Shown: positions 8,651 to 50,335, numbered from the stretch's first letter. The stretch is DNA of 64,000 nt from a bacterium (GCA_021823685.1 JAKANL010000005.1:5489-69488), one strand, 5' to 3'. Notes: generated by a model not told the origin, from the letters alone. Translations and numbers: made by a program.

Positions 8651-8873
8651 ATGTCCCCCTGACAGCTCAAAATTTATTAAAAAAAGCTCCAAAACTATAC
8701 TCTTTTAGCATATCAGATTTTACAAAAAACGCAAGAAAAATTACTACTTGAAACATCCACCTGGCCAGGATCAAAAAGATGCCTTGGATCGCTCTCAACG
8801 CACATTTCAGAACCTCTCCAAAAGTGTTAGAATAAAGAGACGTAATAACGGGCTCATATTAAGCAAAAACATC

Positions 8874-13535: not shown

Positions 13536-13765
13536 ATCTTTCTCTTAACCTTCAAAGGGTACTCGCCAAGTTTTCCGCTCTGCGCCTCTTGTCGAGCTAT
13601 AAGAATATTTTTTATGAAATCGTAGGTCAAATCCGGATTTTCCTCGGCGATTCTGCCTATTTTTGCCCAATGTTCTATTTGGCCGGCTATGGACCGATTA
13701 ACCGCTTTGGACATGACCTTTGCATCAGCAACGATAGTATCAGATAGTTTCACGGCAGTTGCCAT
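13532..13765 (-). CDS. ParD-like type II antitoxin
   Basis: From the ATG at 13765: MATAVKLSDTIVADAKVMSKAVNRSIAGQIEHWAKIGRIAEENPDLTYDFIKNILIARQEAQSG. This fits the ParD-like (PF11903-type) antitoxins, and the gene is translationally coupled to the toxin. The longer track ORF (to 13849) is probably an overextension. Confidence 0.7.
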   Translation of the reverse strand: MATAVKLSDTIVADAKVMSKAVNRSIAGQIEHWAKIGRIAEENPDLTYDFIKNILIARQEAQSGKLGEYPLKVKRKI

Positions 13766-13857
13766 AATATGCCTTTCTGTGTTCGACATCCCTAGGTAAA
13801 CTTTATGCCAAAATGCAACTTTTTGCAACCAGATACAACCGTAAACCAAGACAGAAA

Positions 13858-21567: not shown

Positions 21568-22269
21568 ATGCGTGTTTTCGTGTTTCTCTTCGCATTTTTA
21601 TTTTTGATTACGCAAGCACAAGAAGTCACTGACAATAAGACACTCATCGACCGCGTTTATCAAAACATCAGCGGCTATCATATCGATGATCAAGAACGTC
21701 AACTCATTGAAAAAAGTGGTGGCAATCCAACGTATGGCGAAATTACCCACGCAGGTTCACAAAAATTGGCCGAAGTTATGGAGCTCACCAAAAAAGACGT
21801 TTTTTATGATTTGGGCAGCGGTGTCGGCGCAAATGTTATTAGAATTTACCTGGAAACACCGGTAAAAAAAGCAATTGGCGTGGAACTTGCTGCGTCTCGC
21901 CATGCTGGTGCACAAAAAGCCAAAGAAGAACTACTCAAACAAAAAAAGTTGAACAAAAAACGCAAACTCGAATTTCGTGAGGGCGATATCGCTTTGGCTA
22001 AAATTGATGACGCCACCGCAGTCTTTATGAATTCGCTTTGTTTTTCCAATGATTTTATGAAGGTACTCACAGAAAAACTTTCGCGCCTCAAACCGGGATT
22101 GCGCGTTGCCACGCTACGGCAAATTGAAGATCAAGAACATTTTAAACTCAAAGGAATTTATACCATTCCAATGTCCTGGTCAAAGAATTCAACGGTATAT
22201 GTTTACACGCTCGAAAAGCGTAATAAAGCCAAGAAAAAACACGTAAACAAACCATCAATAAAAGAATAA
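21568..22269 (+). CDS. DOT1-like SAM-dependent methyltransferase with N-terminal signal peptide
   Basis: Signal-like MRVFVFLFAFLFLITQAQ|E. The ordered blocks YGEI, DVFYDLGSGVGANV, IGVE, REGDI, AVFMNSLCF, LSRLKPGLRV and MSWSKNSTVYVYTL parallel DOT1L blocks YGET, DLFVDLGSGVGQVV, YGVE, ERGDF, VIFVNNFAF, FANMKEGGRIV and VSWTGKPVSYYLHT. Confidence 0.7.
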   Translation: MRVFVFLFAFLFLITQAQEVTDNKTLIDRVYQNISGYHIDDQERQLIEKSGGNPTYGEITHAGSQKLAEVMELTKKDVFYDLGSGVGANVIRIYLETPVKKAIGVELAASRHAGAQKAKEELLKQKKLNKKRKLEFREGDIALAKIDDATAVFMNSLCFSNDFMKVLTEKLSRLKPGLRVATLRQIEDQEHFKLKGIYTIPMSWSKNSTVYVYTLEKRNKAKKKHVNKPSIKE

Positions 22270-31808: not shown

Positions 31809-31847
31809 AAAAAGCGTCGCCATTTGGAATGGCGACGCTTTTTATTT
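31809..31847. terminator. Bidirectional intrinsic terminator
   Basis: AAAAAGCGTCGCCATT-TGG-AATGGCGACGCTTTTT lies between leuS(+) and the convergent gene 31847..33013(-). Confidence 0.8.
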
Positions 31848-33013
31848 TATGTGGCAGAATCCCCTTCGGAAACTGGTGATGGTGAACGAGCCGACCGCCC
31901 AAGCGCACCCTCGGGTAAACTCAAGTGCCATGTATCGGTAATCTCGGTCAAAAGCGCAGGGGCTACTGAGCGAATCGCGCAACTAAAATCACCCCAAAAA
32001 GCTTTGAGCGCAGCACGCTGAGTAAACCAATCGCTGGAGCCCACGGCGCGCCGTTGCGGCGTCGCATACACTTTGAATTTTTTAAGCGGATCAGCAGCAA
32101 GATCAGCAAGTGCGTCATACTGGTGTTCACCAAAGGCATTAAGCAATTGCTTGAGCTCGATAATTTTATCTTTCTGGTCAGGAAGTTTACCAATAAATTC
32201 TTTGCACGAGGCCAAAACTTCAGCACTATTTTCGGGTATTTTTTGATCGGCAGAATCAAGAATTTTGCTAATCACATAGACACGTGTACCCATTAACTTG
32301 ATCGTGCTCATAAATCGCTCAACAAGCACCCCATGTTGGATCTGCATTAATTGTGCCTGCATTGCCGCAACGCCTCTTGAGCACGCTTCTGCTTCTTCAG
32401 TTTGCGCACCAGCCGGATTTTGAACGATAGAAAGCGTACGCGATACTGCACCCCTCAGCGCATCGAGATCCTCACCGGCTGATTCGGACTTTTCCTCGGC
32501 TTTTGTTGTTACACTATCAGTCTGTATAAATTCATCCTGAAAGGCACGCATCGCAGGTGCCTCTGATTCCACAAGACCATCTGTCTGCGTACTTTTTTCT
32601 TGGCAATCAGCAGCCGATCGCTCAATAGAGAAAAGAGCATCCTGAGTCTGCGCACCAACTGATCTTCTTTCGCGCGTCTCAGCCGACGTTCGCATTCGTG
32701 GCGCCAAAAACAACCGCTGCAAGCGATCAAGTTCTGCGCGCTGCGATACCAGCGACTTTAATGCGTCCAACTCACCGGCAAGTTGCCACCAACTCCGATA
32801 TCTCCGCGACTCCGGCTGAAGGGAGGTGATAAGTGGTTGCGCCAAATCTTTTTTGCGCGCAGCAAAACCGACATGCAGTAATACGTTAATGCGCAGTTTT
32901 TCGGATAAAAATGTTTGTTGATTGTGAAGAACTTCACGTTTTTGTGCTGCAAAAAGAGAACCGATCGTCAATGATATCATCAGTACAAGATACCCAAACG
33001 TACGTTTGACCAT
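31847..33013 (-). CDS. Hypothetical secreted protein
   Basis: 388 aa with the signal peptide MVKRTFGYLVLMISLTIGSLFA|AQ. I recognise no family. The last approximately 40 codons lie in GC-rich, repeat-related sequence. Confidence 0.55.
   Translation of the reverse strand: MVKRTFGYLVLMISLTIGSLFAAQKREVLHNQQTFLSEKLRINVLLHVGFAARKKDLAQPLITSLQPESRRYRSWWQLAGELDALKSLVSQRAELDRLQRLFLAPRMRTSAETRERRSVGAQTQDALFSIERSAADCQEKSTQTDGLVESEAPAMRAFQDEFIQTDSVTTKAEEKSESAGEDLDALRGAVSRTLSIVQNPAGAQTEEAEACSRGVAAMQAQLMQIQHGVLVERFMSTIKLMGTRVYVISKILDSADQKIPENSAEVLASCKEFIGKLPDQKDKIIELKQLLNAFGEHQYDALADLAADPLKKFKVYATPQRRAVGSSDWFTQRAALKAFWGDFSCAIRSVAPALLTEITDTWHLSLPEGALGRSARSPSPVSEGDSAT
31855..31980. repeat. GC-rich repeat-related segment, copy C (weak)
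   Basis: ACCCTCGGGTAAACTCAAGTGCCATG resembles ACCCTTCGGTAAACTCAGGATGCATG at 38904-38929. By eye it is richer in GC than the flanks. Confidence 0.3.
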
Positions 33014-33038
33014 CGCGATTTAAATCCCCTGGTTGTTT

Positions 33039-34934
33039 TTAGCCCGGCAAGTAACCCGTCGCAACGCTAGCCGCTGAAGCAAGACCGCGAGCCAATTCTG
33101 CTGTTCTGGCTGCCGTTGACGCGCTTATCATGGGCGATTCAGGTGCGGTAACTTTCTCGGCAAGCATGCCCGTAAGTTTTGTCACGGCAGAAGGATCTTC
33201 CTGCGCCAACTGCTTAAACATAAGCCCAGCGATATCGGCTTCCGGCTGACTGGATGAGATTACCATTTTTGGCTCTGCAGCACCAGCTGGACTTGAAACG
33301 ATCGGTTCAAAAGATTCCTGAAAAGCCGTTGTCGGCTCACCAATAGAAAGTTCTATGGGGCCACGTACCGGTGCAACCGGTACATCCGTCGATTCGGCTG
33401 CCAAGCGCTCGCGCGCCTCTCTAGGATTAAACCATTCAAACATCGTTGAAAGCTTGTTGATGACGCGCTGGGTAACGCCCGCTTCTGGGGCCTTTTGTGC
33501 AGGTCTGGCTTGTGCGGGGAAAACAGCTGGGCCGGGAAGTTCAGCGTGCACAGTTGGACGTGTAAGATCGGTAATTTTTTGATTTAGCCCCTCGATAGCG
33601 CTTTTTTGCGCGCGAACAACGCTGGAAAGCTGCCCAATACGTACTTTGTCGGTTATGTTGGATGGGCGCTGCACAGCAGCAAGTTTCTGTTGAATGAGCC
33701 CGGGTTTTACAAACATCTCTTCTATTCTTGCGCGCATGGCAGATTGCCGTAAATTGCTCATCTCTTTATTTTTTGCGGTGACCGCTGCTTCAAGTTTGGC
33801 GCGATCACTTTCAATTTTAGCGGCAGCTTGCCGTTGATCAGCGAGCACCTTATCGGCATCTGCCAAACGCTGATCTTTGGTGCGCATCTCAGCAGTTACT
33901 TTATCGATTTCCTGCTCGTGGCGCTTAACGGCGATCTCGAGTTCTTCGGCGCGCTTTTGGGCGATATCACGCTCTTGAGCCGCTTTTGCAGCCTGCACGG
34001 TATCGAGCCGGTGCTGTTCTTGCGCCCTCGCCGCCGCATCCGTTATTTCTTTTTCATGGATTTCTTTTTGGGTAACAGCCTCTTGCTCATGACGTTTAAC
34101 GGCCGTCTCGAGTTCTTCAGCGCGCTTTTGGGCAATATCACGCTCTTGGGCCGCTTTTGCGGCCTGCGCGGTATCGAGCCGGTGCTGTTCTTGCGCCCTC
34201 GCCGCCGCATCAGTTATTTCTTTTTCATGGATTTCTTTTTGAGCAACAGCCTCTTGCTCATGACGTTTAACGGCCGTCTCGAGTTCTTCAGCGCGCCTTT
34301 GGGCAATATCACGCTCTTGGGCCGCTTTTGCAGCCTGCACGGTATCGAGCCGGTGCTGTTCTTGCGCCTTCGCCGCCGCATCAGTTGTTTCTTTTTCATG
34401 GATTTCTTTTTGGGTAACAGCCTCTTGCTCATGACGCTTAATGGCCGTATCGAGTACCTCAGCGCGCTTTTGGACAACAGCACGATCTTGGACAATTTGT
34501 TCTAAACGCTCTTTTAGATGCGCTGATTCTTGCGCGGTTTTGCTCATGGCATTTTTTGCTTCCTGGCAGCCTGTGCGTTCAGTCACAAGCAGCTTCTTAA
34601 TCGATTGAGCCCGTTGGCGCAAAAGCTCCATGTTGCTATTGTACGAAAATTGTTGCGATCTAATCCGCTTGGCAAGCGCATCCATCTCGCGCTGAATATT
34701 TTTACGCATGGAAACAGCCCCTTTGCCAAAACGATCCCCAAGCTTTCTACGCACACTCCCATGGATCACCTCAGGCTGAAGCTTGCCAAGCGCTAAAAGA
34801 CGCTCAACATCACTGCGCGCACTACGATAGGCATCGACGGCATCACCTGCCATCAAACCCGGTACGGAACAAAGGATAAAAAAGATACTGCGATATAATC
34901 GTGAAATAACCACCATTTCCCCTTTCAGGTCCAT
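33039..34934 (-). CDS. Secreted coiled-coil protein with 57-aa tandem repeats
   Basis: 631 aa with the signal-like segment SIFFILCSVPGLMA|GD. A long heptad-rich, charged region contains about 3.3 copies of RAEELETAVKRHEQEAV.QKEIHEKEITDAAARAQEQHRLDT.QAAKAAQERDIAQK. Confidence 0.8.
   Translation of the reverse strand: MDLKGEMVVISRLYRSIFFILCSVPGLMAGDAVDAYRSARSDVERLLALGKLQPEVIHGSVRRKLGDRFGKGAVSMRKNIQREMDALAKRIRSQQFSYNSNMELLRQRAQSIKKLLVTERTGCQEAKNAMSKTAQESAHLKERLEQIVQDRAVVQKRAEVLDTAIKRHEQEAVTQKEIHEKETTDAAAKAQEQHRLDTVQAAKAAQERDIAQRRAEELETAVKRHEQEAVAQKEIHEKEITDAAARAQEQHRLDTAQAAKAAQERDIAQKRAEELETAVKRHEQEAVTQKEIHEKEITDAAARAQEQHRLDTVQAAKAAQERDIAQKRAEELEIAVKRHEQEIDKVTAEMRTKDQRLADADKVLADQRQAAAKIESDRAKLEAAVTAKNKEMSNLRQSAMRARIEEMFVKPGLIQQKLAAVQRPSNITDKVRIGQLSSVVRAQKSAIEGLNQKITDLTRPTVHAELPGPAVFPAQARPAQKAPEAGVTQRVINKLSTMFEWFNPREARERLAAESTDVPVAPVRGPIELSIGEPTTAFQESFEPIVSSPAGAAEPKMVISSSQPEADIAGLMFKQLAQEDPSAVTKLTGMLAEKVTAPESPMISASTAARTAELARGLASAASVATGYLPG
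33936..34448. repeat. Tandem repeat, 171 bp x 3 full copies (plus partial copies on both sides), in-frame coding
   Basis: The unit start CTCGAGTTCTTC recurs at 33936, 34107 and 34278. The units differ at only a handful of positions. Confidence 0.9.
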
Positions 34935-35046
34935 TTATTACAGTATACGCCAAATACCCACAAAGGTCAAGGAAAAATGCTAATTGAAAATTAGATGCCG
35001 AGCGCCAACCGAAGCGTAATTAAGACGGATTGCTCTCAGAAAGCAC

Positions 35047-35083
35047 AAAAAAGAGGGGCCTCGCTTCCAGGCCCCTCTTTTTT
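35047..35083. terminator. Intrinsic terminator hairpin
   Basis: AAAAAAGAGGGGCC-loop-GGCCCCTCTTTTTT lies between 33039..34934 and 35099..36661, both on the minus strand. Confidence 0.75.
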
Positions 35084-35098
35084 AAACAAGCTACAAAT

Positions 35099-36661
35099 TT
35101 AAATAGAAACACCCAGCTTAATCCAGGCGAGCCAACGGTTAGTTACCGTATTTGCATGTCCTGATTCATACGAACCACCGATACTGATAAATGTTGGATA
35201 TTCAATATCTTTCCAGGCATATGACAATGCACCATAAATAATCTGCGACATACAGCCAGGATATGCTGCTGAATTTTCTTCGATATCGTCATTGGTGATA
35301 GCAATATACGTTGGAACTTTTGCGCCCTGCGTTTGGATATCAGGATTACCCAATGGGAAGTTATCAATATCAAAAACAGGAGAATTTGGTTTGGCAAGAC
35401 TACGCGTATACGGCGTATTGACTCCGTTAGCCCACGCAGCCATCGCCGGAATACCTACGCGCTTGCTGCACTTGCCACATAAACAAATATCTTCGGCGTG
35501 GCGCATGAGCAAATTGGCACCACCTTCAGCGCTAAAACCACCCTCGTTGTAACGCAATGCAATGTTAATATCAATATTGTAGTGTGGATGCACTTCAACG
35601 CACATCGTCGTGTAGTTGATCAAGTAATCGAGATAGTCTGAGTTGCCTATAACTGCGTCATCTGCGGTCCAATCGGGCAGGAGCGCATCGGTTTTATAGC
35701 AAACCATGTAACGACTCCACGGTTTACCCTTTAAATCAAATGAACGTTTTTGCTTGTTTGGCACAAGATAGCGCAAAACCGACTCGCACAAGCACGTAAC
35801 CGTACGCCCTTTTTTATCGTTCAACAATTCTAATTCGTTGTTGGAACCAAAAAGAAGCTCAACGTGCCCATTGTTGCCCAAAATTGGTTCAAATAAATAA
35901 CGCGAACATGGTTTATTGCCGGTTGGAATTGTAATACCTACAAACCATCCGTGTAGACACTCTTCACTTTTATGCACGTCATAACCGAAGCGAGCCTCAA
36001 CTTGCGGAACCCCGGTTTTACGCAGACATCTATTCGTCATACGGCCGTAGCAACGCTTGGTATTGCAATCGCCCATGGCGCTGATAAACGAACCAAACGC
36101 ACCATCAGGCACATTGCCATTACCGGCATGAAGAGGGGTCTCGCACATATTTAAGCGATTTTCGATACGAACGACGGGTAGCGAGATATCAAACCAAAAA
36201 TTGCGCGGCAAGCGTTGGAAGTAAGAAAAGCCAACGCCAAACGATCGCTGCTTAGGGCAAAAACGAACGCGGCTGGCATAGCTGAGTGGTGTCAGATTAT
36301 CGATATCAACGGGAGCCGTCTGAATACCCAGGTTGTAAGCATTGATATCAACCGGTTGGACAAACGATGAGGTTGGAGCGTCGTCTTCAGCAACGATAAT
36401 TTCGTAACCTTCATTGGGCAAGAAATACTTTGCAATTTTGTTTGCCTGTGTGGTTTCACCGCCAAAAACGGTGGCCTGCAATGATGCTCCGTGGCCATCC
36501 TCACGCACACTACGAAAATCTCTGAAGATTGATATCAGTTCAGGCCGTTCTACTTTATAGAGTGGTGGTATTGGTAAAAATGTAAGTCCATAAACGTCGG
36601 CAAAGAGCCGTGCCGCCGGCATTGAGATTAAAAGAACAAGCAGTAGCTTTCGCGCCATCAT
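35099..36661 (-). CDS. Cysteine-rich putative outer-membrane beta-barrel protein / porin
   Basis: ATG at 36661 (AAGGA RBS; the track start at 36688 is TTG). Signal peptide MMARKLLLVLLISMPAARLFA|DV. It has many alternating-polarity strands (FGVGFSYFQ, WFDISLPVV, EARFGYDV, INIALRYN, ISIGGSYE) and ends in an amphipathic strand, WLAWIKLGVSI. I count about 15 Cys. Confidence 0.5.
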   Translation of the reverse strand: MMARKLLLVLLISMPAARLFADVYGLTFLPIPPLYKVERPELISIFRDFRSVREDGHGASLQATVFGGETTQANKIAKYFLPNEGYEIIVAEDDAPTSSFVQPVDINAYNLGIQTAPVDIDNLTPLSYASRVRFCPKQRSFGVGFSYFQRLPRNFWFDISLPVVRIENRLNMCETPLHAGNGNVPDGAFGSFISAMGDCNTKRCYGRMTNRCLRKTGVPQVEARFGYDVHKSEECLHGWFVGITIPTGNKPCSRYLFEPILGNNGHVELLFGSNNELELLNDKKGRTVTCLCESVLRYLVPNKQKRSFDLKGKPWSRYMVCYKTDALLPDWTADDAVIGNSDYLDYLINYTTMCVEVHPHYNIDINIALRYNEGGFSAEGGANLLMRHAEDICLCGKCSKRVGIPAMAAWANGVNTPYTRSLAKPNSPVFDIDNFPLGNPDIQTQGAKVPTYIAITNDDIEENSAAYPGCMSQIIYGALSYAWKDIEYPTFISIGGSYESGHANTVTNRWLAWIKLGVSI

Positions 36662-36737
36662 AATTATCCTTTCTTGATTGGCCAACAAAAAACCTACTCC
36701 TGTTCTACTACACTGAACAATGTAATGTAAACAAAAA

Positions 36738-36765
36738 GAAGAGGCAGTTTTTTAACTGCCTCTTC
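36738..36765. terminator. Intrinsic terminator hairpin
   Basis: GAAGAGGCAGTT-TTTT-AACTGCCTCTTC lies just downstream of the gene 36785..38437(-). Confidence 0.7.
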
Positions 36766-36784
36766 AAGAATAATCTAAAAAGAG

Positions 36785-38437
36785 TTATTTCGCAGATGCT
36801 GGTTGTGCTGGTTTAGAAGCTTCAGAAGTTGGAGTTTTTGATCCACGCAACCAACCGAACCAACGACGAGCCTCCGGTTGCGCTTGAGGTGCTACCGGCG
36901 TTGCTACAACAGGTTTTGGTTGTTGAACTACCGGAGTTACTGCTTGTGGCGTTGTTTCTGGTTTTGCTACTGGACTAACATTTTTTGACCAACGAAGCCA
37001 GTTAAACCAACCACCAACGGCTGCTTGCGCTTGAGGCGCTACCGGTGTTGTTACAGCAGGTTTCGCTTCTGGTTGCACGGCATAGAGCTCTTGCAATTCT
37101 TGAGTGAGACCTTCCAAGCTAGCAAAGATTCTTTGCGAAGGAAGCGTCACTTTTTGTTCGACCAACTTACCATTGGCATCTTTTGCAAATACCTTGTTAC
37201 CATTGGCATCTCTAGCCGATACCTTGATAGCATCATACTGCTTTTCGCCATTTTCAGCCTTCTTCAGGTTGACCTTGAGGCCCGGTTCATAAACCATAAC
37301 ATCGGCATAGTCATCAACGAGCTCATTGAGTTTAGCAACAAGCCGGGCATTGTTGGCCATGAGAGTCGCATTGAGACGTTGCGATTCGGAAAGACGAGCA
37401 TTAACTTGTTCAACCTGATCATGGTTGGTACGTTGCAATTCAGCGAGACGAACGTTAGCCTGATCAAGCTGATTATGCAATGCACGGTCGCCGTTTTCTA
37501 AGCAAACGCCGCGATGCATGGCACGGCTAAACGAATCGTTAACATTTTGCAATTCAGCATTTTTAGCGTTCAACTCTTGAACTTTAGCATTCAACAAGCG
37601 GTCTTTTTCGCTGACGCTATTGGTCAACGCAGCCACTTGTTGCTCAGCATTCTGCAATTCGGCGGTTTTTACGTCCAATTCTTGAACTTTGGCATTCAGC
37701 AAGCCGTCTTTTTCGCTGACGCTATTGGTCAACGCAACCACTTGCCGTTCAGTATTCTGCAATTCGACGTTTTTCGCGTCCAATTCTTGAACTTTGGCAT
37801 TCAGCAAGCCGTCTTTTTCGCTGACGCTATTGGTCAACGCAGCCACTTGCCGCTCAGTATTCTGCAATTCGGCGTTTTTAGTGTCCAATTCTTGAACTTT
37901 AGCATTCAACGAGCAGTCTTTTTCGCTAACGTTATCGGTCAGCGTAGCCACTTGCCGCTCACTATTTTGCAATTCAGCGTCCTTTGCGCTCAACTCTTGG
38001 CCTTTAACGACCATGGCTCGGTTAACTTCAGCTAATTTGGCATTTTTGGCCGTCAATTCTTGCGTCTTGGCAACCAAAGCCTTATCAAATTTAGCCAACT
38101 CGGCCTTCTTGTGTTCATTTACTTTGCGCACGATAGCACCAACGCCACGTACACCCTTGAAAGAAAGGCCCTTCACGCGCTTATCTGACGATTTCTTCAA
38201 AGAGGCAAGCGTAGCTTGTAACTTTGAAACGGCACCTTCAAGCCCAGAAATATTTTTTTGAGCTATCAACGCCTTCACTTGCGCATTAAATTGCCCAATA
38301 GTCTTGGCAATTTGATCTACCTTTTTCACTTGTTTTGCTGGAGCTGGTTTTTTGACCGGCTTAACCGCTTTAGGTTGTGCCGCCGACAAACCAAATCCGC
38401 TCAACAAAAGAACAGGCAATAATATCTTCTTGTACAT
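36785..38437 (-). CDS. Secreted coiled-coil protein with 35-aa tandem repeats and a duplicated C-terminal WFxWLRxSK motif
   Basis: ATG at 38437 is preceded by GGAGG (the track start at 38485 is further upstream). Signal peptide MYKKILLPVLLLSGFGLSA|AQP. There are about 4.5 copies of NAKVQELD.KNAELQNTERQVAALTNSVSEKDGLL. Confidence 0.8.
   Translation of the reverse strand: MYKKILLPVLLLSGFGLSAAQPKAVKPVKKPAPAKQVKKVDQIAKTIGQFNAQVKALIAQKNISGLEGAVSKLQATLASLKKSSDKRVKGLSFKGVRGVGAIVRKVNEHKKAELAKFDKALVAKTQELTAKNAKLAEVNRAMVVKGQELSAKDAELQNSERQVATLTDNVSEKDCSLNAKVQELDTKNAELQNTERQVAALTNSVSEKDGLLNAKVQELDAKNVELQNTERQVVALTNSVSEKDGLLNAKVQELDVKTAELQNAEQQVAALTNSVSEKDRLLNAKVQELNAKNAELQNVNDSFSRAMHRGVCLENGDRALHNQLDQANVRLAELQRTNHDQVEQVNARLSESQRLNATLMANNARLVAKLNELVDDYADVMVYEPGLKVNLKKAENGEKQYDAIKVSARDANGNKVFAKDANGKLVEQKVTLPSQRIFASLEGLTQELQELYAVQPEAKPAVTTPVAPQAQAAVGGWFNWLRWSKNVSPVAKPETTPQAVTPVVQQPKPVVATPVAPQAQPEARRWFGWLRGSKTPTSEASKPAQPASAK
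37546..38010. repeat. Tandem repeat, 105 bp x about 4.5 copies, in-frame coding
   Basis: The (T)TGCAATTC phase marker recurs with its TGC ending at 37550, 37655, 37760, 37865 and 37970, an exact 105-bp period. Confidence 0.9.
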
Positions 38438-38619
38438 AAGAAACCTCCAGTTTGTACAATTAAACTTCGGAAACTTAAACCGCATTACTTTACCCCCCCA
38501 AAAGGGAGGCTTTTCACGCCTATTTAAAGGTTCCTGCCATTACAATATACAGAATATACTAATTAAAAAAAATTGCAAGTTTATTTTAACTGAAAATAAT
38601 TTTCCAACGAGAGGAAGTA

Positions 38620-41262: not shown

Positions 41263-43218
41263 TTAATCCGTAGATTTTAATATCTGCAGTTCATTGCGTA
41301 GTTTAATCGCCAATTCAAAATCAAGATTTTCTGCAGCCTGGCGCATATTTTGCTCAAGCTCGACCATGCGTTTAATGCGCGCATTTTTATCCAGGCGCGT
41401 ACTGCGGCTGCCATGTTTTTTGTACGCTTTAGCGGCTGCAAGCGGTGAGCCGGTGATACTTTTAACGACTTCGCGGGTAACGGTGCGCGGTTGAATCCCG
41501 TGATCTTTGTTATAGGCTAGCTGCAAGTTACGCCGACGCGCTGTTTCATCCATAGCAACACGCATCGATTCGGTAATCTTATCGGCATACAAAAGCACTT
41601 TGGCCTCGCTATTGCGCGCAGCACGGCCGATCGTTTGTATTAATGAGCGGCGATCGCGCAAAAAACCTTCAATATCGGCGTCCATGATCGCCACGAGCGC
41701 AACCTCGGGCAGATCAAGGCCTTCGCGCAATAAGTTTACGCCGACCAAACAATCAAAAACGCCCAAACGCAATTTTTGCAAAATATCAGTTCGTTCTGGT
41801 GTTTTAATCTCGCTGTGCAGATAACACACTTTAATCTGGTTATTTTCAAGATGATCGGCCAATTCTTCGGCCATCTGCTTGGTCAAAACAGTTACTAAAC
41901 AGCGAAAGCCTCGCTTGGCCGTCTGACGAATATGCTCAATTAAATCGTTCACCTGGTTCACCCGGCTGCGCACCTCAACAACTGGATCAACCAATCCGGT
42001 TGGACGAATAACTTGTTCGACAACGCCTTGGCTCTGCGCAAGCTCATATTGGCCAGGGGTGGCTGATACAAAAATAACGTCACGCAAATACTTTTCAATT
42101 TCATCAAACTTGAGCGGACGGTTATCCAAAGCCGAAGGCAATCTAAAACCAAAATCAATCAGCGATTGTTTGCGTGAGCGATCGCCTGAATACATACCAC
42201 CAAGCTGCGGGACAGCAATATGCGATTCATCGATGATGCACAAAAAATCTTCCGGAAAAAAGTCAAATAAACAAAATGGCGCTTGTCCGCCGGCACGGCC
42301 GTCAAAGTGGCTGGAATAATTTTCGATGCCATTACAATAGCCATATTGCTCCAAAAGCTCTAAATCGTGCGCAACCCGGCGCCCAATACGATCTTGATAA
42401 AGCGGATTAGCCATTTTGGGCAACCACTCATTAAGTTCACGCTTAATGCTCATAATCGCTGAATTCTTTTTATCTTGCGTAGTTACAAAGTGTTTGGCAG
42501 GAAAAACAATCGTATGATCAACGCTCTCGATAACGGTATTATGCTGGCGATCGACCCAGGCCATATGTTCAATCGTATTGCCAAAAAACTCTATGCGCAG
42601 CTTATGCGCGGCGTAGGGCGCCTGGATTTCAACAGTATTACCCACAACCTGAAACGTTCCCGATGCTCGTTGGACATCGTTACGTTCGTATTGGATAAAA
42701 ATCAATTTGTGTAACAAATCGTTACGAGAAATCTTGTCACCAATATTAATCGGCAGCGCTAACTCACGATAAGCGGTTGGGTCACCCAACGAATAAATAC
42801 ACGAAACAGAAGCAATCATAATCACATCACGGCGGTTCATTAACGATGCCGTTGCTTCAACGCGCAAACGCTCAATCTCGCGGTTTACTTTGGTTTCCTT
42901 GGGAATATAAATATCCTGTGCCGGCAGGTACGATTCAGGCTGGTAAAAATCGTAATAGCTCACAAAATAACAAACTTTATTGTGCGGAAAGAATTGGTAA
43001 AACTCTTCGTATAACTGCGCGGCAAGCGTTTTATTAGGCGATAAAATAAGCACGGGCCGATCTTGCCCAGCAATCACATTAGCTAACGTAAACGTCTTGC
43101 CCGAACCGGTCACACCCATGAGCGTTGAGCGCCCGGGACGCTGGTCAGAGAGCTGGGCAATAGCGCCCGGCTGACTGCCAGCAGGCTGATACGGTGAAAC
43201 AAGTTTAAATAACGACAC
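41263..43218 (-). CDS. uvrB: Excinuclease ABC subunit B
   Basis: Walker A GVTGSGKTF, helicase motifs (DESH, TVLTKQMAEEL) and a C-terminal UVR domain. I prefer the GTG at 43218 (AAGGGGG RBS), which gives MSLFKLVSPYQPAGSQP, like E. coli MSKPFKLNSAFKPSGDQP. Confidence 0.95.
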   Translation of the reverse strand: MSLFKLVSPYQPAGSQPGAIAQLSDQRPGRSTLMGVTGSGKTFTLANVIAGQDRPVLILSPNKTLAAQLYEEFYQFFPHNKVCYFVSYYDFYQPESYLPAQDIYIPKETKVNREIERLRVEATASLMNRRDVIMIASVSCIYSLGDPTAYRELALPINIGDKISRNDLLHKLIFIQYERNDVQRASGTFQVVGNTVEIQAPYAAHKLRIEFFGNTIEHMAWVDRQHNTVIESVDHTIVFPAKHFVTTQDKKNSAIMSIKRELNEWLPKMANPLYQDRIGRRVAHDLELLEQYGYCNGIENYSSHFDGRAGGQAPFCLFDFFPEDFLCIIDESHIAVPQLGGMYSGDRSRKQSLIDFGFRLPSALDNRPLKFDEIEKYLRDVIFVSATPGQYELAQSQGVVEQVIRPTGLVDPVVEVRSRVNQVNDLIEHIRQTAKRGFRCLVTVLTKQMAEELADHLENNQIKVCYLHSEIKTPERTDILQKLRLGVFDCLVGVNLLREGLDLPEVALVAIMDADIEGFLRDRRSLIQTIGRAARNSEAKVLLYADKITESMRVAMDETARRRNLQLAYNKDHGIQPRTVTREVVKSITGSPLAAAKAYKKHGSRSTRLDKNARIKRMVELEQNMRQAAENLDFELAIKLRNELQILKSTD

Positions 43219-43385
43219 GTTTTTAACCCCCTTGGCAAGAACCAATCGCGCAATCGCAATATATGAACGGGCGAATACCAGTTCTTTTATTAGAGTATCA
43301 CAAATGGCTTATTTTGGCCAAAAAACCAGACTTTTGAGGTAAGCTTTAGAAGAACGCCAAAAGTTTTTAAAAGCAGGTAAAAAAT

Positions 43386-43703
43386 ATGAACAAAGGTAAA
43401 AGTTATAACAATTTACTCATTAAATCACTCAAAAAGCCTCAAGAAGCGGTTGCTTACTTAAATGCTGCTTTGGAGGAATGCAAAGATGGCAGCGTAGAAT
43501 CTCAAAAACTTCTCTTTATCGCCTTTAAAAATGTCGCGCTCGCACAGGGCGGTTTTTCAAATCTTGCAACCAAGACAGGTCTAGGCCGTGAAAGCCTCTA
43601 TAAAACGCTGTCAAAAAGGGGTAATCCAAAACTAACCACCTTAACAACATTGATCAGCGCAATGGGTTTTGACTTAAAAATAAGTTTGCCACAAAAACGC
43701 TAG
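43386..43703 (+). CDS. HigA-type addiction-module antidote protein (HTH), apparently orphan
   Basis: 105 aa. LKKPQEAVAYLNAALEE...FLIAFKNVALAQGGFSNLATKTGLGRESLYKTLSKRGNPKLTTLTTLISAMGF matches the TIGR02684-type antidote proteins. There is no intact toxin ORF upstream. Confidence 0.75.
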   Translation: MNKGKSYNNLLIKSLKKPQEAVAYLNAALEECKDGSVESQKLLFIAFKNVALAQGGFSNLATKTGLGRESLYKTLSKRGNPKLTTLTTLISAMGFDLKISLPQKR

Positions 43704-43757: not shown

Positions 43758-43791
43758 AAAAAAAGGGAGCGGTAAACCGCTCCCTAAAAAA
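43758..43791. terminator. Bidirectional intrinsic terminator
   Basis: AAAAAGGGAGCGG-TAAA-CCGCTCCCTAAAAAA lies between convergent genes. Confidence 0.75.
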
Positions 43792-43806: not shown

Positions 43807-44451
43807 TTACTTAACTTTTGAAAGCAACGTCATTAATTCGCAGATCTGCGCTTCACTGAGCACGTTAACCACATTTGGATCAGCCAAAACATCTTTGCAT
43901 AGGCTATATGGATTAGAGGTTGCAACCACGCGGCTTAATGGCGTTTGGTTAAACCAACGAGCTAATTTAAGCAACCCGTAAGATGAACCGCCAAACACAG
44001 CACCCCTGAGCACATCGTACGGCAAAATGTACTTTGCAAAATTGGTTAAGTGAAGTTGGCCGGGAAGGAATGCGCCGCTCGTCAAGGACGAAACTTTTGC
44101 ATCATATGCACCTTTCAAGTAAGACGCATATCCTTCGTCCAATGCATTATGTGCAATGTAGACAGTGCACAAAGCAGCGCCTGCAGCGCACACCATTGCA
44201 GCTAGCGCGGCTTTTTTAAAACGAGGACGCTCCGCTTCAGCCAATTTGATAGCTAAACCAAAGTCGGAAGCGTTAGCAAAAGAACGACCGCCTGATAAAA
44301 CAGCCGGATGGCTGGCGACAAATGCACGAGCAAAATCAGCACAGTTTTGTGCGTTAATTTTAACAACATCCGCTCGCAGCGGCGCAAGCATCGCCACCAC
44401 AGCCAGCAATCCAAAGAAACACGACTTACGTACCATGAAAATCCCTTTCAC
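43807..44451 (-). CDS. Small secreted protein, array member 1
   Basis: 214 aa. Signal peptide FFGLLAVVAMLAPLRA|DV, N-terminal NCADFARAF motif, internal hydrophobic segments, and a C-terminal SLCKDVLADPNVVNVL motif. Confidence 0.6.
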   Translation of the reverse strand: MKGIFMVRKSCFFGLLAVVAMLAPLRADVVKINAQNCADFARAFVASHPAVLSGGRSFANASDFGLAIKLAEAERPRFKKAALAAMVCAAGAALCTVYIAHNALDEGYASYLKGAYDAKVSSLTSGAFLPGQLHLTNFAKYILPYDVLRGAVFGGSSYGLLKLARWFNQTPLSRVVATSNPYSLCKDVLADPNVVNVLSEAQICELMTLLSKVK

Positions 44452-44572
44452 TAAAAATTAACTCATTGCAGTATATGATGCCCTAATACCAAAAAATGTC
44501 TATCAAAAAGTAGGATTTTTGCCCGAAGTTAGGCGCATTTACACGTTCCGGCGTATTTTTTCGTTGGCAATA

Positions 44573-45277
44573 TCACAAAAACTTGGCAGCCAAAATCAAT
44601 ACGCCGGCACCGATTGCCAAATAATTCGGCTTGCGCGGCCATATACCGCTCCTGGCAATTCCAAGAACATTTATTCCATACCCTACCTCAATAAACGGCA
44701 TTTCTTGCGCCCATTTTACCCGCTTGGCAGCAGCCCACGCGCGCAATTCATCGAGAACCCGCGCATCAAAAAGTCCGGCCAACTCCGGGCAAACAAGCAC
44801 GCGTTCAACCAACAAAAAATCGTCAAAATTTTTCAGCGCCTGACGCACCATGATACGATCACTACGCTTGCCCTTCCCCGCGCGCAAAGCGCAACCAGAA
44901 GCCCGTTGCACCAAAAAACGTAACACCTCTCCCAAACAAGAAAAATCATCTTTGTTCTTTTCAATGGCTTCTTGACTTTTTGCAAGAGCTTCTAAATCTC
45001 CAGCAAGCGTTTTTTGAGCTTCTTCAAGACCTTTTCGTTCATCACCCAATGCCGAACAGCCTTTCCAGGCAAAAATGGCCATCACGGCATATGCAAGCGC
45101 TCCCTTCCAAGCCATTTGATAATCGGCATCTTCTTTGGCATAAATCTGCTTAATCTTTTTTGAAAGTTCTGCCGCGCGTGCTGATAAAAAATCAGCGCTA
45201 CACGATGGCGCAACTTTTTGCATGGCCAGGCAGCTACTCGTTACCACCAAAGAAGCAAAAAAAACGAGACAACGCAT
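44573..45277 (-). CDS. Small secreted/membrane protein, array member 2
   Basis: ATG at 45277 (the track start at 45304 is TTG). Signal peptide MRCLVFFASLVVTSSCLA|MQ, SCSADFLSARA motif, LVCPELAGLFDARVL motif, and a C-terminal TM segment, YLAIGAGVLILAAKFL. Confidence 0.6.
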   Translation of the reverse strand: MRCLVFFASLVVTSSCLAMQKVAPSCSADFLSARAAELSKKIKQIYAKEDADYQMAWKGALAYAVMAIFAWKGCSALGDERKGLEEAQKTLAGDLEALAKSQEAIEKNKDDFSCLGEVLRFLVQRASGCALRAGKGKRSDRIMVRQALKNFDDFLLVERVLVCPELAGLFDARVLDELRAWAAAKRVKWAQEMPFIEVGYGINVLGIARSGIWPRKPNYLAIGAGVLILAAKFL

Positions 45278-45290
45278 ATTAAAATTTTCT

Positions 45291-45977
45291 TTAAGAAGGC
45301 TCAACCGTTAACCCAGCAACGGCACACATACCATCAAGTACGGCATCACCGGGCATGGCAGCTTGGCACCACGTATCAATTAAGACCGGATTATCCAATA
45401 ATAACTGTTTTAAACATACCGGGCACAACCCTTTCCCAACGCGCTTGCCCGTTTGATAATCGGTTGCCTTAATTCCAAGACGCCAAGAACTGTACCCCAG
45501 GGCCGTTGCAGCGCACAGACGGGAGAATGCGCCACTCCGCCGAGCGAAGAAATTAAACATGCCTGAAGCGCCAAATTTGACCGCATAAATTGCACAAAAC
45601 GCGGCCGCCGGCAGATATAAATAGCGTTTTTCTTGTTCATCCTGCACCGTCTTTGCCAGCACGCTTGCATCATGCAAGCACTGCCCATGATGGGTCGCCT
45701 TGAAATATGGCAAAAGCCCTATTCTGGGAAAGCGCGGCACGGGCGAAACTTTTTGTTCTTGTGGTATGGGTTCTGGCTTGGCCGACTCACGGGCCACGGG
45801 CGCAACAGGTGCCGCTGGAGCTGGGGGCGTCACTTCTTTTTCAGAAACTGGCGGGACTTGTTGAACAACAGGAGCCTGAATAACCACGGATTGAGCAGTG
45901 GCCGGCTCCATCGCCAAACACCGGCATGTACCACTAATACCCAAAATGAACATCGTTATATGTGCACGCGTTGCCAT
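45291..45977 (-). CDS. Small secreted protein, array member 3 (Pro-rich linker)
   Basis: 228 aa. Signal peptide ...FILGISGTCRCLA|MEP, a Pro/Val/Ala-rich spacer, hydrophobic segments, and a C-terminal GLCPVCLKQLLLDNPVL. Confidence 0.6.
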   Translation of the reverse strand: MATRAHITMFILGISGTCRCLAMEPATAQSVVIQAPVVQQVPPVSEKEVTPPAPAAPVAPVARESAKPEPIPQEQKVSPVPRFPRIGLLPYFKATHHGQCLHDASVLAKTVQDEQEKRYLYLPAAAFCAIYAVKFGASGMFNFFARRSGAFSRLCAATALGYSSWRLGIKATDYQTGKRVGKGLCPVCLKQLLLDNPVLIDTWCQAAMPGDAVLDGMCAVAGLTVEPS

Positions 45978-46070
45978 ACTTTTCCTCGTATTTTTAAAGA
46001 TAAAATCTGGGTATCATTATGGACAAAGAACGAAAAAAATCAATCGATTTCAGCGTATATCACGTTACAA

Positions 46071-46340
46071 TCAGCCACTTATTTGCGCATCCAAAAACAA
46101 TTTTGTCCAATCAATACGCCATAACGGTCTAACCGACTTCATATCTGGCAAACACAAAGCGCACAACCACGGCACCGTCGTACGTCGCGGATCCGGCTTA
46201 TGTGCACGTTGCAAAACCGCACTCGTCATAACCGGACCAAGCGAATCAAAACTAGGTGAACGTTCAATCCGCCGCTTCTGCCCGCCGGCATTCAAGCTCA
46301 TAACCGTGGCGGCAATCAACACAAACATTATTTTTTTCAT
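46071..46340 (-). CDS. Small secreted protein, array member 4
   Basis: ATG at 46340 with a GAGGGG RBS. Signal peptide MKKIMFVLIAATVMSLNA|GG, and the motif WLCALCLPDM. Confidence 0.45.
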   Translation of the reverse strand: MKKIMFVLIAATVMSLNAGGQKRRIERSPSFDSLGPVMTSAVLQRAHKPDPRRTTVPWLCALCLPDMKSVRPLWRIDWTKLFLDAQISG

Positions 46341-46357
46341 AAATCCCCTCAACTTAA

Positions 46358-46864
46358 TTAAATATCTGCAAGTCCCTCACGCATGCCACGCAGCAATTCT
46401 GGATGCAAGCACGCGCAGGCTTCCTGGTTTACCACAATGTGTTTGGCGATGTGTGGCATCGCACGCGATACAAACGCTCCGCGGCTGTAAAGACTATGCC
46501 AAGCTGCCGTCATGAAAAAAGCGGTAAGTGCAGATATGAGCACGGCGCTATCCAGGTAGATCGGCCAATAGTTCGCCTTGGAAAATATATCGCTCTGAAC
46601 GTCTTGTATTTTTCTCAAGTCACACGCAACGGCGTATCCGGCTTTTGCTGCCGCTGCAGCAAAAAACAATTTGTAGAAAAATTTTGGTCCGAAATAACCC
46701 GTTTTTGCCTGACAAAAAGTATTGAGCTGCTGCGCAAAACCGACTATTGGTACCGATCGATTTTTATCAGAATTCACCGCACTCGATTTTGGCTCCATGG
46801 CACCAAGCCCGCCCCCACCAATGGTACTTGCTAAACAAAACACCGCAAATACTACGCTCTTCAT
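46358..46864 (-). CDS. Small secreted protein, array member 5 (clear paralog of member 6)
   Basis: 168 aa. Signal peptide ...ASTIGGGGLGA|MEP. FAQQLNTFCQAK and NQEACACLHPELLRGMREGLA align with LAEQLNAFCHRQ and DENACKSLDQDLLRGLREGFA of the next gene. Confidence 0.65.
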   Translation of the reverse strand: MKSVVFAVFCLASTIGGGGLGAMEPKSSAVNSDKNRSVPIVGFAQQLNTFCQAKTGYFGPKFFYKLFFAAAAAKAGYAVACDLRKIQDVQSDIFSKANYWPIYLDSAVLISALTAFFMTAAWHSLYSRGAFVSRAMPHIAKHIVVNQEACACLHPELLRGMREGLADI

Positions 46865-46877
46865 GAACTACTCCCCA

Positions 46878-47414
46878 TCACTTTGTTCTATCGCTTCCTG
46901 TACAAGCAAAGCCCTCACGCAACCCGCGCAATAAATCTTGATCTAACGATTTGCAGGCATTTTCGTCGGCAAGAATACGCACAACCATATCCGGCTCCTC
47001 GTGGGCAAAAAAACGCCCCAGCCTAGCGCGCTGTACCCCAGATGTCGCCAGCGCAAAACCAACCAAAGATGCCAGTATTAACGTGCCATCTATACCAATG
47101 GTCCAGTTACTCCTATCGTCTTTTTTTACTTCCTGCACAATATCACAGCCAAGTTTAACCATAAGCGCCGCCATGAATGTCTGGAAAAAACTGCCGGTTG
47201 AAACAGCAGAAACCTGCCTGTGGCAAAAAGCATTCAATTGTTCGGCCAACTCTACGGCCGTAGGCGCCGGTTTTTCTTGTTTTACGGTCTCTTTTGGCGC
47301 ATCGCCCTGTGGCACCTTAATTTGTACCGTTGACCCCAATTCTACGCGCATCATCGCATCAAGGCGACTGCCACCGCTTCCCAAAAGAAGCGCTACCCAT
47401 ACCAATTTCTTCAT
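46878..47414 (-). CDS. Small secreted protein, array member 6
   Basis: The ATG at 47414 gives MKKLVWVALLLGSGGSRLDA|MM. It is a paralog of 46358..46864. The longer track ORF (to 47573) adds an implausible N-terminus. Confidence 0.6.
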   Translation of the reverse strand: MKKLVWVALLLGSGGSRLDAMMRVELGSTVQIKVPQGDAPKETVKQEKPAPTAVELAEQLNAFCHRQVSAVSTGSFFQTFMAALMVKLGCDIVQEVKKDDRSNWTIGIDGTLILASLVGFALATSGVQRARLGRFFAHEEPDMVVRILADENACKSLDQDLLRGLREGFACTGSDRTK

Positions 47415-48394: not shown

Positions 48395-48550
48395 ATGCGA
48401 ACGAACAAAATTTGACGATCAGTCAAAAAAACGCTACTATTAAAGCGATTATCGTGTATGTGTAACCTTGTAACCTCTTAGCTTTCTACAGCCGTTAAGA
48501 GCTTGTGCTTATTTTCAATAAGCACCGATCGGTTCAGGAGTTTTTTCTTT

Positions 48551-50335
48551 ATGCCTAAAAAAGTGCTTAAGCCAAGTCAATTTGGCAAAGCGTACGTACC
48601 ATTCGAAACGGACGTTGTACTCAGCGGTGAACAGTCGCAGGAACTCAACCAGTTATATGAAGCTGCCAGCGTTCATATCAGAGCAGGCAAACTGATTAAT
48701 GGCAAAGTTCTCGCCGTTGACCAAGGCGGCGTTCTTGTTGATATCGATTATAAATCAAACGGTTTGATCCCGGCCTATGAATTTGGAGAACATGAATTAC
48801 GCGCACTTAAACCGGGCGCCATCATTGATGTTATTATTTCTGAAATTGAAAATGCCGAAGGAACCGTAAGCCTTTCTTACGAACGCGCCAAGGCGCTTAA
48901 AGCGTGGGAAAAGATTACCAAACTTCACGAAGAGGGCAAACCGGTTGAAGGTATTGTTACCCAAACAGTTAAAGGCGGCTTGAGCGTTGATATCGGTGTC
49001 CCTGCATTCTTGCCAGGATCGCAGGTTGATATCCAACGCGTGGTCGACTTCGACCAATATATCGGTAAATCTATTATCGCTGAAATTATTAAAATTAATA
49101 AAAAACGCGGCAACGTAATTATTTCCCGCCGCAAGTATTTGTCTGAGGAACGCGCATCGGCTCGTAAAAAGGCCATGGAAACCTTACAAGAAGGCCAAGT
49201 TCTTCAGGGCGTCGTCAAAAACATCACCAATTACGGGGTGTTTATTGATATCGGCGGCGTCGATGGATTACTGCATATCACCGATATGACCTGGGGCCGC
49301 ATTGCTCACCCAAGTGAAGTTGTCAGAATCGGCGAAACCGTTACGGTTAAGGTTTTATCAATCGATAAAGATAACGGCAAAATTTCGTTGGGCATGAAGC
49401 AGCTCACCGACAATCCTTGGAGCACCCTCGATCCTAAAATCCAAATCGGCTCAAAAATCAAGGGACGTATTGCCAGCATTACGGATTACGGACTTTTCGT
49501 TGAAGTCAAAGAAGGCGTGGAAGGGCTTGTTCACATTTCTGAAATTTCGTGGACCAGCCGCGTTGATAACCTCAACGCTCTATACAAAGTCGGCGACATG
49601 ATCGATGTGTACGTGGTATCCCTCGATAAAGACAATCGCCGCATGTCATTGAGCGTTAAACAGCTGCAAGATGATCCATGGAAATCAGTTAATGAAAAAT
49701 TCAAGGTCGGCCAAGTAATTAAAGGCGCTATCTCCAACGTTACCGATTTCGGTATTTTTATCCAGCTGATTCCGGGCGTTGATGGCTTAGCACACGTTTC
49801 AGACTTGTCATGGACTGAACATATTGATCATCCATCACATCTGTATAAACGCGGGCAAGACGTAGAAGCCGTTATTTTAAATATCGACGAAGCCAATAAA
49901 AAAGTTTCATTGGGTATCAAACAATTAACGCCAGATCCACTCGAAGCATTTGCCAAAGAACATGCAATTGGGTCGCTGGTTGAAGGCGAAATCACCAAGT
50001 TCACCAACATTGGCGCTTTTGTCAAAATTGCCGACGGCATTGAAGGATTAATCCACAACAGTGAATTAGCAATAAAGAACGGCAAAAAAGAAACCAAGAC
50101 TGGCGAACCGCTTGAAATTGGCATGAAACGGCAGCTTCGTTTGATCAATATTAACTTGGAAGAACGCAAAGTCGATCTTTCAATCCATCTTGATGAACAA
50201 GCCGAACGTATTGCCAAAGAGCCTAAGATCCGCGCCAAGAAAAAAGAATCTGCGGCTCCTATGCCTAAGGCCAAGAACCAATTACAATTGGCTCTTGAAC
50301 GGCTTGAATCACGCGAAGATATTGAAGAACAATAA
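48551..50335 (+). CDS. rpsA: 30S ribosomal protein S1 (six S1 domains)
   Basis: It has repeated S1 OB-fold units (GKVLAVDQGGVLVDI, GIVTQTVKGGLSVDI, GVVKNITNYGVFIDIGGVDGLLHITDM, and others). ATG at 48551 is preceded by CAGGAG. Confidence 0.95.
   Translation: MPKKVLKPSQFGKAYVPFETDVVLSGEQSQELNQLYEAASVHIRAGKLINGKVLAVDQGGVLVDIDYKSNGLIPAYEFGEHELRALKPGAIIDVIISEIENAEGTVSLSYERAKALKAWEKITKLHEEGKPVEGIVTQTVKGGLSVDIGVPAFLPGSQVDIQRVVDFDQYIGKSIIAEIIKINKKRGNVIISRRKYLSEERASARKKAMETLQEGQVLQGVVKNITNYGVFIDIGGVDGLLHITDMTWGRIAHPSEVVRIGETVTVKVLSIDKDNGKISLGMKQLTDNPWSTLDPKIQIGSKIKGRIASITDYGLFVEVKEGVEGLVHISEISWTSRVDNLNALYKVGDMIDVYVVSLDKDNRRMSLSVKQLQDDPWKSVNEKFKVGQVIKGAISNVTDFGIFIQLIPGVDGLAHVSDLSWTEHIDHPSHLYKRGQDVEAVILNIDEANKKVSLGIKQLTPDPLEAFAKEHAIGSLVEGEITKFTNIGAFVKIADGIEGLIHNSELAIKNGKKETKTGEPLEIGMKRQLRLININLEERKVDLSIHLDEQAERIAKEPKIRAKKKESAAPMPKAKNQLQLALERLESREDIEEQ

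Follow-up and report, generated by a model that had tools for sequence, protein, structure and literature searches.

Positions 43807-47414 of a 64,000-nucleotide (nt) stretch of bacterial DNA (GCA_021823685.1, JAKANL010000005.1:5489-69488; the whole stretch is called the window here) contain six consecutive minus-strand genes, m1 to m6. They lie between uvrB and rpsA, in a slot whose content varies between species. The six genes are probably a co-directional cluster of fast-evolving, exported orphans and not a six-member family; their products are likely to be accessory cysteine-rich proteins which are located in the envelope or secreted. A sequence-only reading of the window had the number and the coordinates of the genes right, and considered them to be one family which arose by duplication and divergence. 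Similarity is at chance level for every pair except m5-m6. A lack of similarity beyond members 5 and 6 was the result which that reading had itself named as speaking against a family, and it is the result obtained.

All-against-all BLASTP of m1 to m6 gives E 7.7e-19 for m5-m6 (29% identity over 181 columns) and E >1 for the other pairs. Smith-Waterman scores compared with 300 shuffles give z = 30 for m5-m6 and z of 1.7 or less for the remaining pairs among the six. Members 5 and 6 are thus unambiguous paralogues, as had been claimed. A hidden Markov model (HMM) of m5 and m6 scores m1 to m4 at approximately 0-2 bits, and an HMM of the m1 family likewise scores the other members at approximately 0-2 bits. 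HHalign profiles were enriched with orthologues from a sister strain (in the case of m1, with three paralogues); these profiles are shallow, with 2-4 sequences each, and the probability is 4.4% or less for the tested pairs outside m5/m6. By these comparisons, the six genes are at least five unrelated orphan families: m1, m2, m3, m4, and m5 with m6.

The architecture which the six proteins were said to share does not hold up. The C-terminal motif C-x2-(C/K/S)-L-x3-LL, as written, matches m3 only (CPVCLKQLLL); a loosened pattern fits five of the six, but it is derived from those same sequences. The supposed common N-terminal Cys motif is in fact two motifs with no relation to each other: C(x)ADF occurs in m1 and m2, LN[TA]FC in m5 and m6, and neither is found in m3 or m4. 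Kinship between m1 and m2, hinted at by C(x)ADF, was considered and rejected (Smith-Waterman z -0.9; HHalign probability 0.1%). Internal hydrophobic segments are not a common architecture either, as their scores differ among m1 to m6.

Nine features are found between uvrB and rpsA: an antitoxin gene, a hairpin, the six minus-strand open reading frames (ORFs), and p7. They are listed here with the two flanking genes. Lengths of m1 to m6, in amino acids (aa), are counted from the most plausible start codons.

41263-43245, minus strand: uvrB, the conserved anchor on one side of the variable slot
43386-43703, plus strand: HigA-like antitoxin gene (dnstrm_HI1420 family), which bounds the cluster on the uvrB side
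43764-43785, minus strand: intrinsic-terminator-like hairpin, with a 9-bp stem containing 7 G-C pairs, followed by a T run
43807-44436, minus strand: m1, 209 aa
44573-45277, minus strand: m2, 234 aa
45291-45977, minus strand: m3, 228 aa
46071-46340, minus strand: m4, 89 aa
46358-46864, minus strand: m5, 168 aa
46878-47414, minus strand: m6, 178 aa
47567-48394, plus strand: p7, an orphan of 275 aa divergent from m6, which bounds the cluster on the rpsA side
48503-50335, plus strand: rpsA (ribosomal protein S1), the conserved anchor on the other side of the variable slot

Exact matches to the products of m1 to m6 are present among public gene calls, and the contig is part of NCBI assembly GCA_027347085.1. 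The spacers among the six genes are 13, 17, 93, 13 and 136 nt. Shine-Dalgarno-like sequences precede five of the six starts; the ATG of m4 is preceded by a GAGGGG Shine-Dalgarno sequence. The terminator-like hairpin lies 21 nt past the stop codon of m1 and is the probable end of the transcription unit or units. A promoter scan of the cluster returned 6 matches, compared with 8.0 expected in shuffled sequence, and so shows no excess. The NCBI model of m2 is 216 aa long and starts at the Met of the predicted signal-peptide cleavage site. The signal-peptide codons of m2 are kept in frame in the sister strain; the 216-aa model is therefore probably too short, and the 234-aa model is preferable.

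Descent of all six genes from one ancestral gene by tandem duplication, with similarity erased everywhere except between m5 and m6, is unlikely. The genes do share a strand and tight spacing; every product has a signal peptide, Cys and Ala are overrepresented in the set as a whole, and an Ala|Met cleavage site is found in four of the products. C(x)ADF stands directly past the cleavage site in m1 and m2, LCxxCL is common to m3 and m4 (Smith-Waterman z 1.6), and in five of the six a Cys is followed by Leu and hydrophobic residues near the C-terminus. The weakest hint is the HHalign comparison of the m1 family with m5/6 (E 0.012, probability 3.7%), in which the Cys motifs are not aligned. AlphaFold2 models of m5 and m3 are both helical, that of m5 entirely so; predicted local distance difference test (pLDDT) values are 51 for m5 (3-sequence alignment) and 39 for m3 (2 sequences), too poor for the models to be compared, and the best PDB match in a Foldseek search with the m5 model has E 1.4. 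Because profiles are shallow and structure models poor, a very remote common ancestry keeps a small share of the probability. Against it, no test gives significant similarity, lengths (89-234 aa) and hydrophobic architecture are unlike, and the motif was fitted after the fact. Orthologues (72-85% identity) show a separate conserved pattern for each gene. Nor are signal peptides and the Ala|Met site peculiar to the six: other, unrelated proteins encoded in the window have them too, among them the ankyrin protein (10227-11537).

The genes are real. The sister strain is represented by Logan sample SRR22387874, in which the region lies on three contigs (L019, L020 and L021; the latter two share a 19-nt overlap). 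Amino acid identities, and ratios of nonsynonymous (dN) to synonymous (dS) substitution, between window genes and their sister-strain orthologues are as follows.

m1: 62% identity, dN/dS 0.25
m2: 76% identity, dN/dS 0.19
m3 (orthologue P0014): 74% identity, dN/dS 0.22
m4: 85% identity, dN/dS 0.17
m6 (orthologue P0011): 77% identity, dN/dS 0.21
p7: 90% identity, dN/dS 0.145
rpsA: 98% identity, dN/dS 0.025, at similar dS

The dN of the cluster genes is approximately 10 times that of rpsA. By these ratios, m1 to m4 and m6 evolve under purifying selection, yet fast. The synonymous sites of m5 and m6 are saturated when compared with each other (proportion of synonymous differences 0.77), so the dN/dS of this pair, which had been proposed as a check, is uninformative, and orthologue pairs were used instead. 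Together with the homologue searches described below, orthologue dN/dS bears out the description of the six as small, real, fast-evolving, lineage-restricted genes. It is most improbable that some or all of them are chance open frames in a non-coding or decaying region, even though they have no homologues outside the lineage and no domain, and m4 is merely 89 aa long. Full-length orthologues exist for five of the six, with dN/dS of 0.17-0.25 and intact frames at a dS of approximately 0.5-1.2; this refutes a spurious origin for m1 to m4 and m6. The other gene, m5, has a clear paralogue, and ribosome-binding sites are present.

All six genes are orphans. An exhaustive search of 1.84 billion representatives with an m5+m6 profile returned only m5 and P0011; two further matches are repeat proteins and cover short stretches only. 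When m5, m3 and the m1 profile were used as queries in word-indexed searches of 5.8 billion clusters, all matches came from the same species or from the sister strain. In these clusters P0014, at 72% identity in this search, is the only homologue of m3. No other homologue of m5 was found in either search; among the 5.8 billion clusters no m5 orthologue from sample SRR22387874 was found, and m5 appears to be missing as a gene of its own in the sister strain. Two JGI metagenome scans and one IMG/VR scan (m1 family) gave no relatives. Pfam, NCBIfam, PHROG and PADLOC gave no match for m1 to m6 or for p7, with zero PHROG or PADLOC families at E <=0.1; the earlier statement that the six have no known domain thus stands. 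A PDB sequence search with the m5/6 profile, m1 and m2 found nothing meaningful.

The slot varies between species. In the two closest species-level genomes (L003 and L004; UvrB 74% and 71% identical), rpsA still adjoins uvrB, and none of the six genes is there, nor is p7. The slot of L003 (7524-9066) holds a single 403-aa glycosyltransferase; that of L004 (2727-9979) holds an unrelated 348-aa ORF and a 1795-aa protein of many tandem repeats. The six genes, p7 and the antitoxin gene are thus a species-specific filling of a variable slot. p7 has a signal-peptide-like N-terminus and no family match; it is unrelated to the six but belongs to the same lineage-specific insert. The L003 and L004 records are labelled 'uncultured Pseudomonadota'. 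The nearest named relatives, as judged from UvrB, are Babeliales, and these labels are probably wrong.

The antitoxin gene beside the cluster is well supported (Pfam E 1.9e-15; TIGR02684 above its cut-off), and no toxin gene adjoins it. An orphan antitoxin of this type, a slot which varies between species, and an inverted-repeat-bounded insertion inside the sister-strain cluster would all fit a remnant of a recently acquired mobile element, a prophage lysis cassette or a defence island. Such an origin is very unlikely. There are no PHROG or PADLOC matches, and the m1 family has no IMG/VR relatives. No tRNA, integrase, flanking repeats or relevant Rfam families were found around the cluster. 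GC content at third codon positions is 0.42-0.50 for the six genes, inside the range of the window (0.45 +/- 0.05).

All six proteins had been described as starting with signal peptides, and this is borne out by a home-made heuristic which requires a positively charged n-region, 9-16 hydrophobic residues as the core, and a small residue at both -3 and -1. Each of m1 to m6 passes as a Sec-type (type I) signal peptide. The signal-peptide regions of the orthologues remain in frame and hydrophobic despite divergence. The predicted signal peptide of m1 is MVRKSCFFGLLAVVAMLAPLRA, cleaved before DV; that of m2 is MRCLVFFASLVVTSSCLA, cleaved before MQ; that of m4 is MKKIMFVLIAATVMSLNA, cleaved before GG. 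Two classes of N-terminus were looked for and rejected. The lipobox [LVI][ASTVI][GAS]C of lipoproteins is absent from all six N-termini; the class III leader (G|F/M-x3-E) of pilins and pseudopilins is absent from the six, and there is no pilin or N-methyl Pfam match at E <=1. Arrays of pseudopilins and minor pilins resemble the cluster in being runs of four to six small co-directional genes with hydrophobic N-termini. However, the six genes are absent from the closest related species and therefore cannot be core machinery.

A Met lies directly past the predicted cleavage site in m2, m3, m5 and m6. The same is seen in two other window proteins, encoded at 7349-8692 (minus strand) and 10227-11537 (plus strand), making six predicted signal peptides altogether. 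The cleavage contexts are A|ME, A|MQ, A|MD and A|MM (for example LSA|MEP and CLA|MEP), which is far above the expectation from Met frequency. This could represent a lineage-specific cleavage preference, or a second start which gives an isoform without signal peptide.

Cys makes up 3.0% of residues in m1 to m6 compared with 1.3% in the other 48 proteins of the window, and Ala 14% compared with 8.9%. Signal peptides and Cys/Ala richness fit exported proteins which would be disulfide-bonded, and with normal third-position GC there is no sign of recent foreign origin. Hydrophobicity was scored in 19-residue windows calibrated on proteins from the same stretch, where soluble proteins score 5.6 or higher and membrane proteins have several segments at 3.5 or lower. 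One segment of transmembrane (TM) grade each is found in m1 (score 0.1, residues 76-94), m5 (2.3, residues 107-125) and m6 (3.3, residues 105-123). m2 is marginal (4.1), m3 resembles soluble proteins (5.5), and the mature part of m4 has no hydrophobic segment on this scoring.

The individual proteins are organised differently. m1 has a conserved N-domain after its signal peptide, then one strong hydrophobic helix and a conserved C-domain. m2, m3 and m4 are singletons: in m2 the hydrophobic helix is marginal, the middle part is charged and helical, and the C-terminus ends in a short hydrophobic tail; m3 has a variable Pro/Ala-rich linker followed by a well-conserved Cys-rich C-terminal domain of approximately 140 aa with LCPVCL; the mature part of m4 is hydrophilic and contains LCALCL.

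m1 belongs to a family which has no other member in the window, whereas the sister strain has three or more copies, among them m1a, m1b (P0015) and m1c, which are 48-60% identical to m1. The m1 profile search finds P0015 at E 1.2e-40, and there is no Pfam match for any of the four members. In the sister strain the order is m1a, m1b, antitoxin gene (L021 1033-1350), m1c. Pairwise identities within the family are 44-61%, and the blocks N-x-Q-N-C and SLCKDVL-x-D-x-NV-x-NVL are invariant. Both terminal domains are conserved (omega 0.13-0.39), but identity is only 21-43% across the 60-75 central residues in which the hydrophobic segments lie. Between m1 and m1a, the flanks are 78-84% identical and the synonymous sites of the centre are saturated, which suggests a mosaic origin and not faster point substitution. 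m1a, m1b and m1c each have two hydrophobic segments approximately 20-40 residues apart, compared with the one strong segment of m1 itself. The terminator hairpin is 95% conserved downstream of both m1a and m1b; the duplicated unit is thus the gene together with its terminator.

m5 and m6 are an old pair, with 33% identity over the full length. They have in common LN[AT]FC, two hydrophobic segments, and a C-terminal C-x-[CS]-L-x3-LLRG-x-REG. The sister-strain orthologue of m6, P0011, is m6-like for most of its length. Over roughly its final 45 nt, 41 of 45 positions agree with m5 and 31 of 45 with m6 (manual count from the alignment). The sequence 3' of P0011 runs into the m5-m4 spacer, where it is interrupted by an inverted-repeat-bounded insertion, and the assembly breaks there. 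The simplest reading, likely though short of proof because of the assembly gap, is that unequal recombination at the conserved LLRG-x-REG region removed m5 from the sister strain and produced an m6::m5 chimera. The insertion (L019 10514-10546 / L020 1-28) lies between the chimera and m4. It is bounded by 16-nt inverted repeats (GGGCCTATCCCTAAAT / ATTTAGGGATAGGCCC) flanked by TATA(T), and may be a small element resembling a miniature inverted-repeat transposable element, or a hairpin. The tandem duplication proposed by the sequence-only reading, and the copy-number variation which it suggested as a check, are found in two separate small families (m5/m6, and m1 with one compared with at least three copies); they do not extend across all six genes.

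The organism, which is uncultured, is very probably a Babeliales/Dependentiae-like intracellular bacterium, as judged from UvrB and gene content. The nearest named UvrB relatives come from Candidatus Babeliales metagenome-assembled genomes (61-66% identity), followed by Bdellovibrionota (54%). The window also encodes an ankyrin-repeat protein with a signal peptide, a C11 peptidase, BamA and an M3 peptidase. That the bacterium is intracellular, as had been proposed, is likewise very probable from its Babeliales-like UvrB.

In Chromulinavorax destructans, a member of the Dependentiae, 44% of coding sequences carry a putative signal peptide; this subset is enriched in ORFans, and Sec is the proposed export route (Deeg et al. 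2019, PMC6561590). In the same organism 78% of ankyrin-repeat proteins have a signal peptide, secreted M3 and C11 peptidases are listed, and putative outer-membrane vesicles which might carry effectors are described (PMC6561590). The core genome of the phylum includes type II secretion components; the comparative genomics study of TM6 which reports these also reports type IV-pilus components, and nowhere mentions a type III system (Yeoh et al. 2016, PMC4776705). Signal-peptide genes are similarly frequent in the window, at approximately 24 of 54 larger ORFs (hand-filtered from 34 flagged by a lenient heuristic), including those for the ankyrin protein and the C11 peptidase. At a frequency of 44%, a run of six such genes is expected by chance in this organism; the probability of a run of at least six is 0.19 for 54 genes and 0.98 for 1000 genes. 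No sequence relationship of the window genes to any C. destructans protein was detected. Unlike the C. destructans ORFans, the six genes form a compact co-directional cluster in a defined slot, and two of the families show duplication or copy-number change.

The reading which we favour, accessory exported orphans, can be put as a mechanism. m1 to m6 would be exported via Sec into the oxidising envelope. m1, m5, m6 and possibly m2 would be anchored in the inner membrane by the hydrophobic helix, with their conserved Cys-containing domains facing the periplasm. m3 and m4 would be soluble in the periplasm, or secreted onward by, for example, a type II system or outer-membrane vesicles. The cluster evolves fast, through point substitution, the old m5/m6 duplication, exchange between paralogues (the apparent m6::m5 chimera of the sister strain) and copy-number change in the m1 family with mosaic centres. 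That the genes are confined to one lineage and turn over there points to an accessory function in the envelope or at the host interface.

Several points weigh against this reading. The signal peptides were called by the home-made heuristic and not by SignalP. In four of the proteins a Met coincides with the predicted cleavage site, and the NCBI start of m2 is placed there; forms without signal peptide are thus conceivable. m2 and m4 were searched by exact-cluster look-up only, with one metagenome scan in addition for m2. The low-pLDDT models (51 and 39) leave room for a remote shared ancestry or fold. The phylum assignment is based on one marker gene and gene content.

It had been suggested, as speculation, that secreted proteins with paired hydrophobic segments in intracellular bacteria are sometimes effectors which insert into host membranes. 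Extended to the present data, this would make at least the m1 family and m5/m6 effectors resembling chlamydial Inc proteins, which reach a host-derived membrane via Sec and a type II system or vesicles and insert there by paired helices; this is unlikely. The organism is probably an intracellular parasite of protists, the genes evolve fast, and m1a to m1c have two hydrophobic segments each. The hypervariable mosaic middle of the m1 family and the copy-number differences between strains fit a host-parasite arms race. However, m1 itself has a single strong hydrophobic segment, such segments are missing from m3 and m4, and dN/dS is below 1 wherever it can be estimated. The lack of any mention of a type III system in the TM6 comparison also counts against it.

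Proteins with a Sec signal peptide and then a TM-grade helix normally stay in the inner membrane of the bacterium (stop-transfer), which likewise argues against insertion into a host membrane. Inc proteins have a bilobed hydrophobic domain of two closely spaced TM helices, have no cleavable Sec signal peptide, and are exported by type III secretion. Like them, the proteins considered here are small, lineage-specific and fast-evolving, belong to an intracellular bacterium, and have hydrophobic segments (two in some members of the m1 family). Unlike them, m1 to m6 are all of Sec type, and m1, m5 and m6 have one TM-grade segment where the Inc proteins have a bilobed domain. As predicted from sequence, Sec-type signal peptides and uneven hydrophobic architecture weaken the idea of host-membrane insertion. 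A related proposal makes the m1 family and m5/m6 Dependentiae-specific, Sec-dependent host-interface proteins which are analogues of Inc, with mosaic centres produced by an arms race and the other members as co-secreted partners; it too has little probability.

The m1 family can also be compared with MSP2/P44 of Anaplasma, a tandem surface-protein family with a hypervariable centre, whose members are larger outer-membrane beta-barrel proteins with a recognised Pfam family. Both have conserved ends, a mosaic and barely alignable centre, and tandem copies which vary between strains. The m1 proteins differ in being approximately 200 aa long, with helical hydrophobic segments and no Pfam match, and no expression-site mechanism is evident.

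As it stands, the six-gene cluster matters little; it is typical of the predicted secretome of Dependentiae, whose richness in orphans has already been described. What it adds is descriptive and modest, namely a variable slot between rpsA and uvrB in one Babeliales clade, together with two small lineage-specific families, m5/m6 and m1 with its mosaic centre. It also documents gene-content change between close strains, with an apparent m6::m5 fusion and one compared with at least three m1 copies. If such proteins were shown to act in the host, this uncultured and poorly understood phylum would have its first defined effector families.

Other genes of the window resemble presumed secreted host-interaction factors. 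The ankyrin-repeat protein with a signal peptide (10227-11537, plus strand) and the C11 (clostripain) peptidase (1223-2488, minus strand) belong to classes described as such for C. destructans. A 233-aa protein (21568-22269, plus strand) has a clear signal-peptide-like N-terminus, MRVFVFLFAFLFLITQA, before QEV, and a DOT1 histone H3K79 methyltransferase domain (Pfam E 1.4e-20; human DOT1L in the PDB, E 9e-9; 9ne1_A, E 4.6e-16). This candidate for a secreted chromatin modifier of eukaryotic type arguably holds more interest than the six-gene cluster. Four consecutive signal-peptide proteins (388, 631, 529 and 566 aa) with no convincing Pfam domain are encoded at 31847-38485 (minus strand); this run, just upstream of the M3 peptidase gene and uvrB, is another set of exported orphans. 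Finally, a complete ParE-like toxin and ParD-like antitoxin pair (13263-13849, minus strand; Pfam E 2.8e-35 and 1.4e-21) adjoins groEL/groES.

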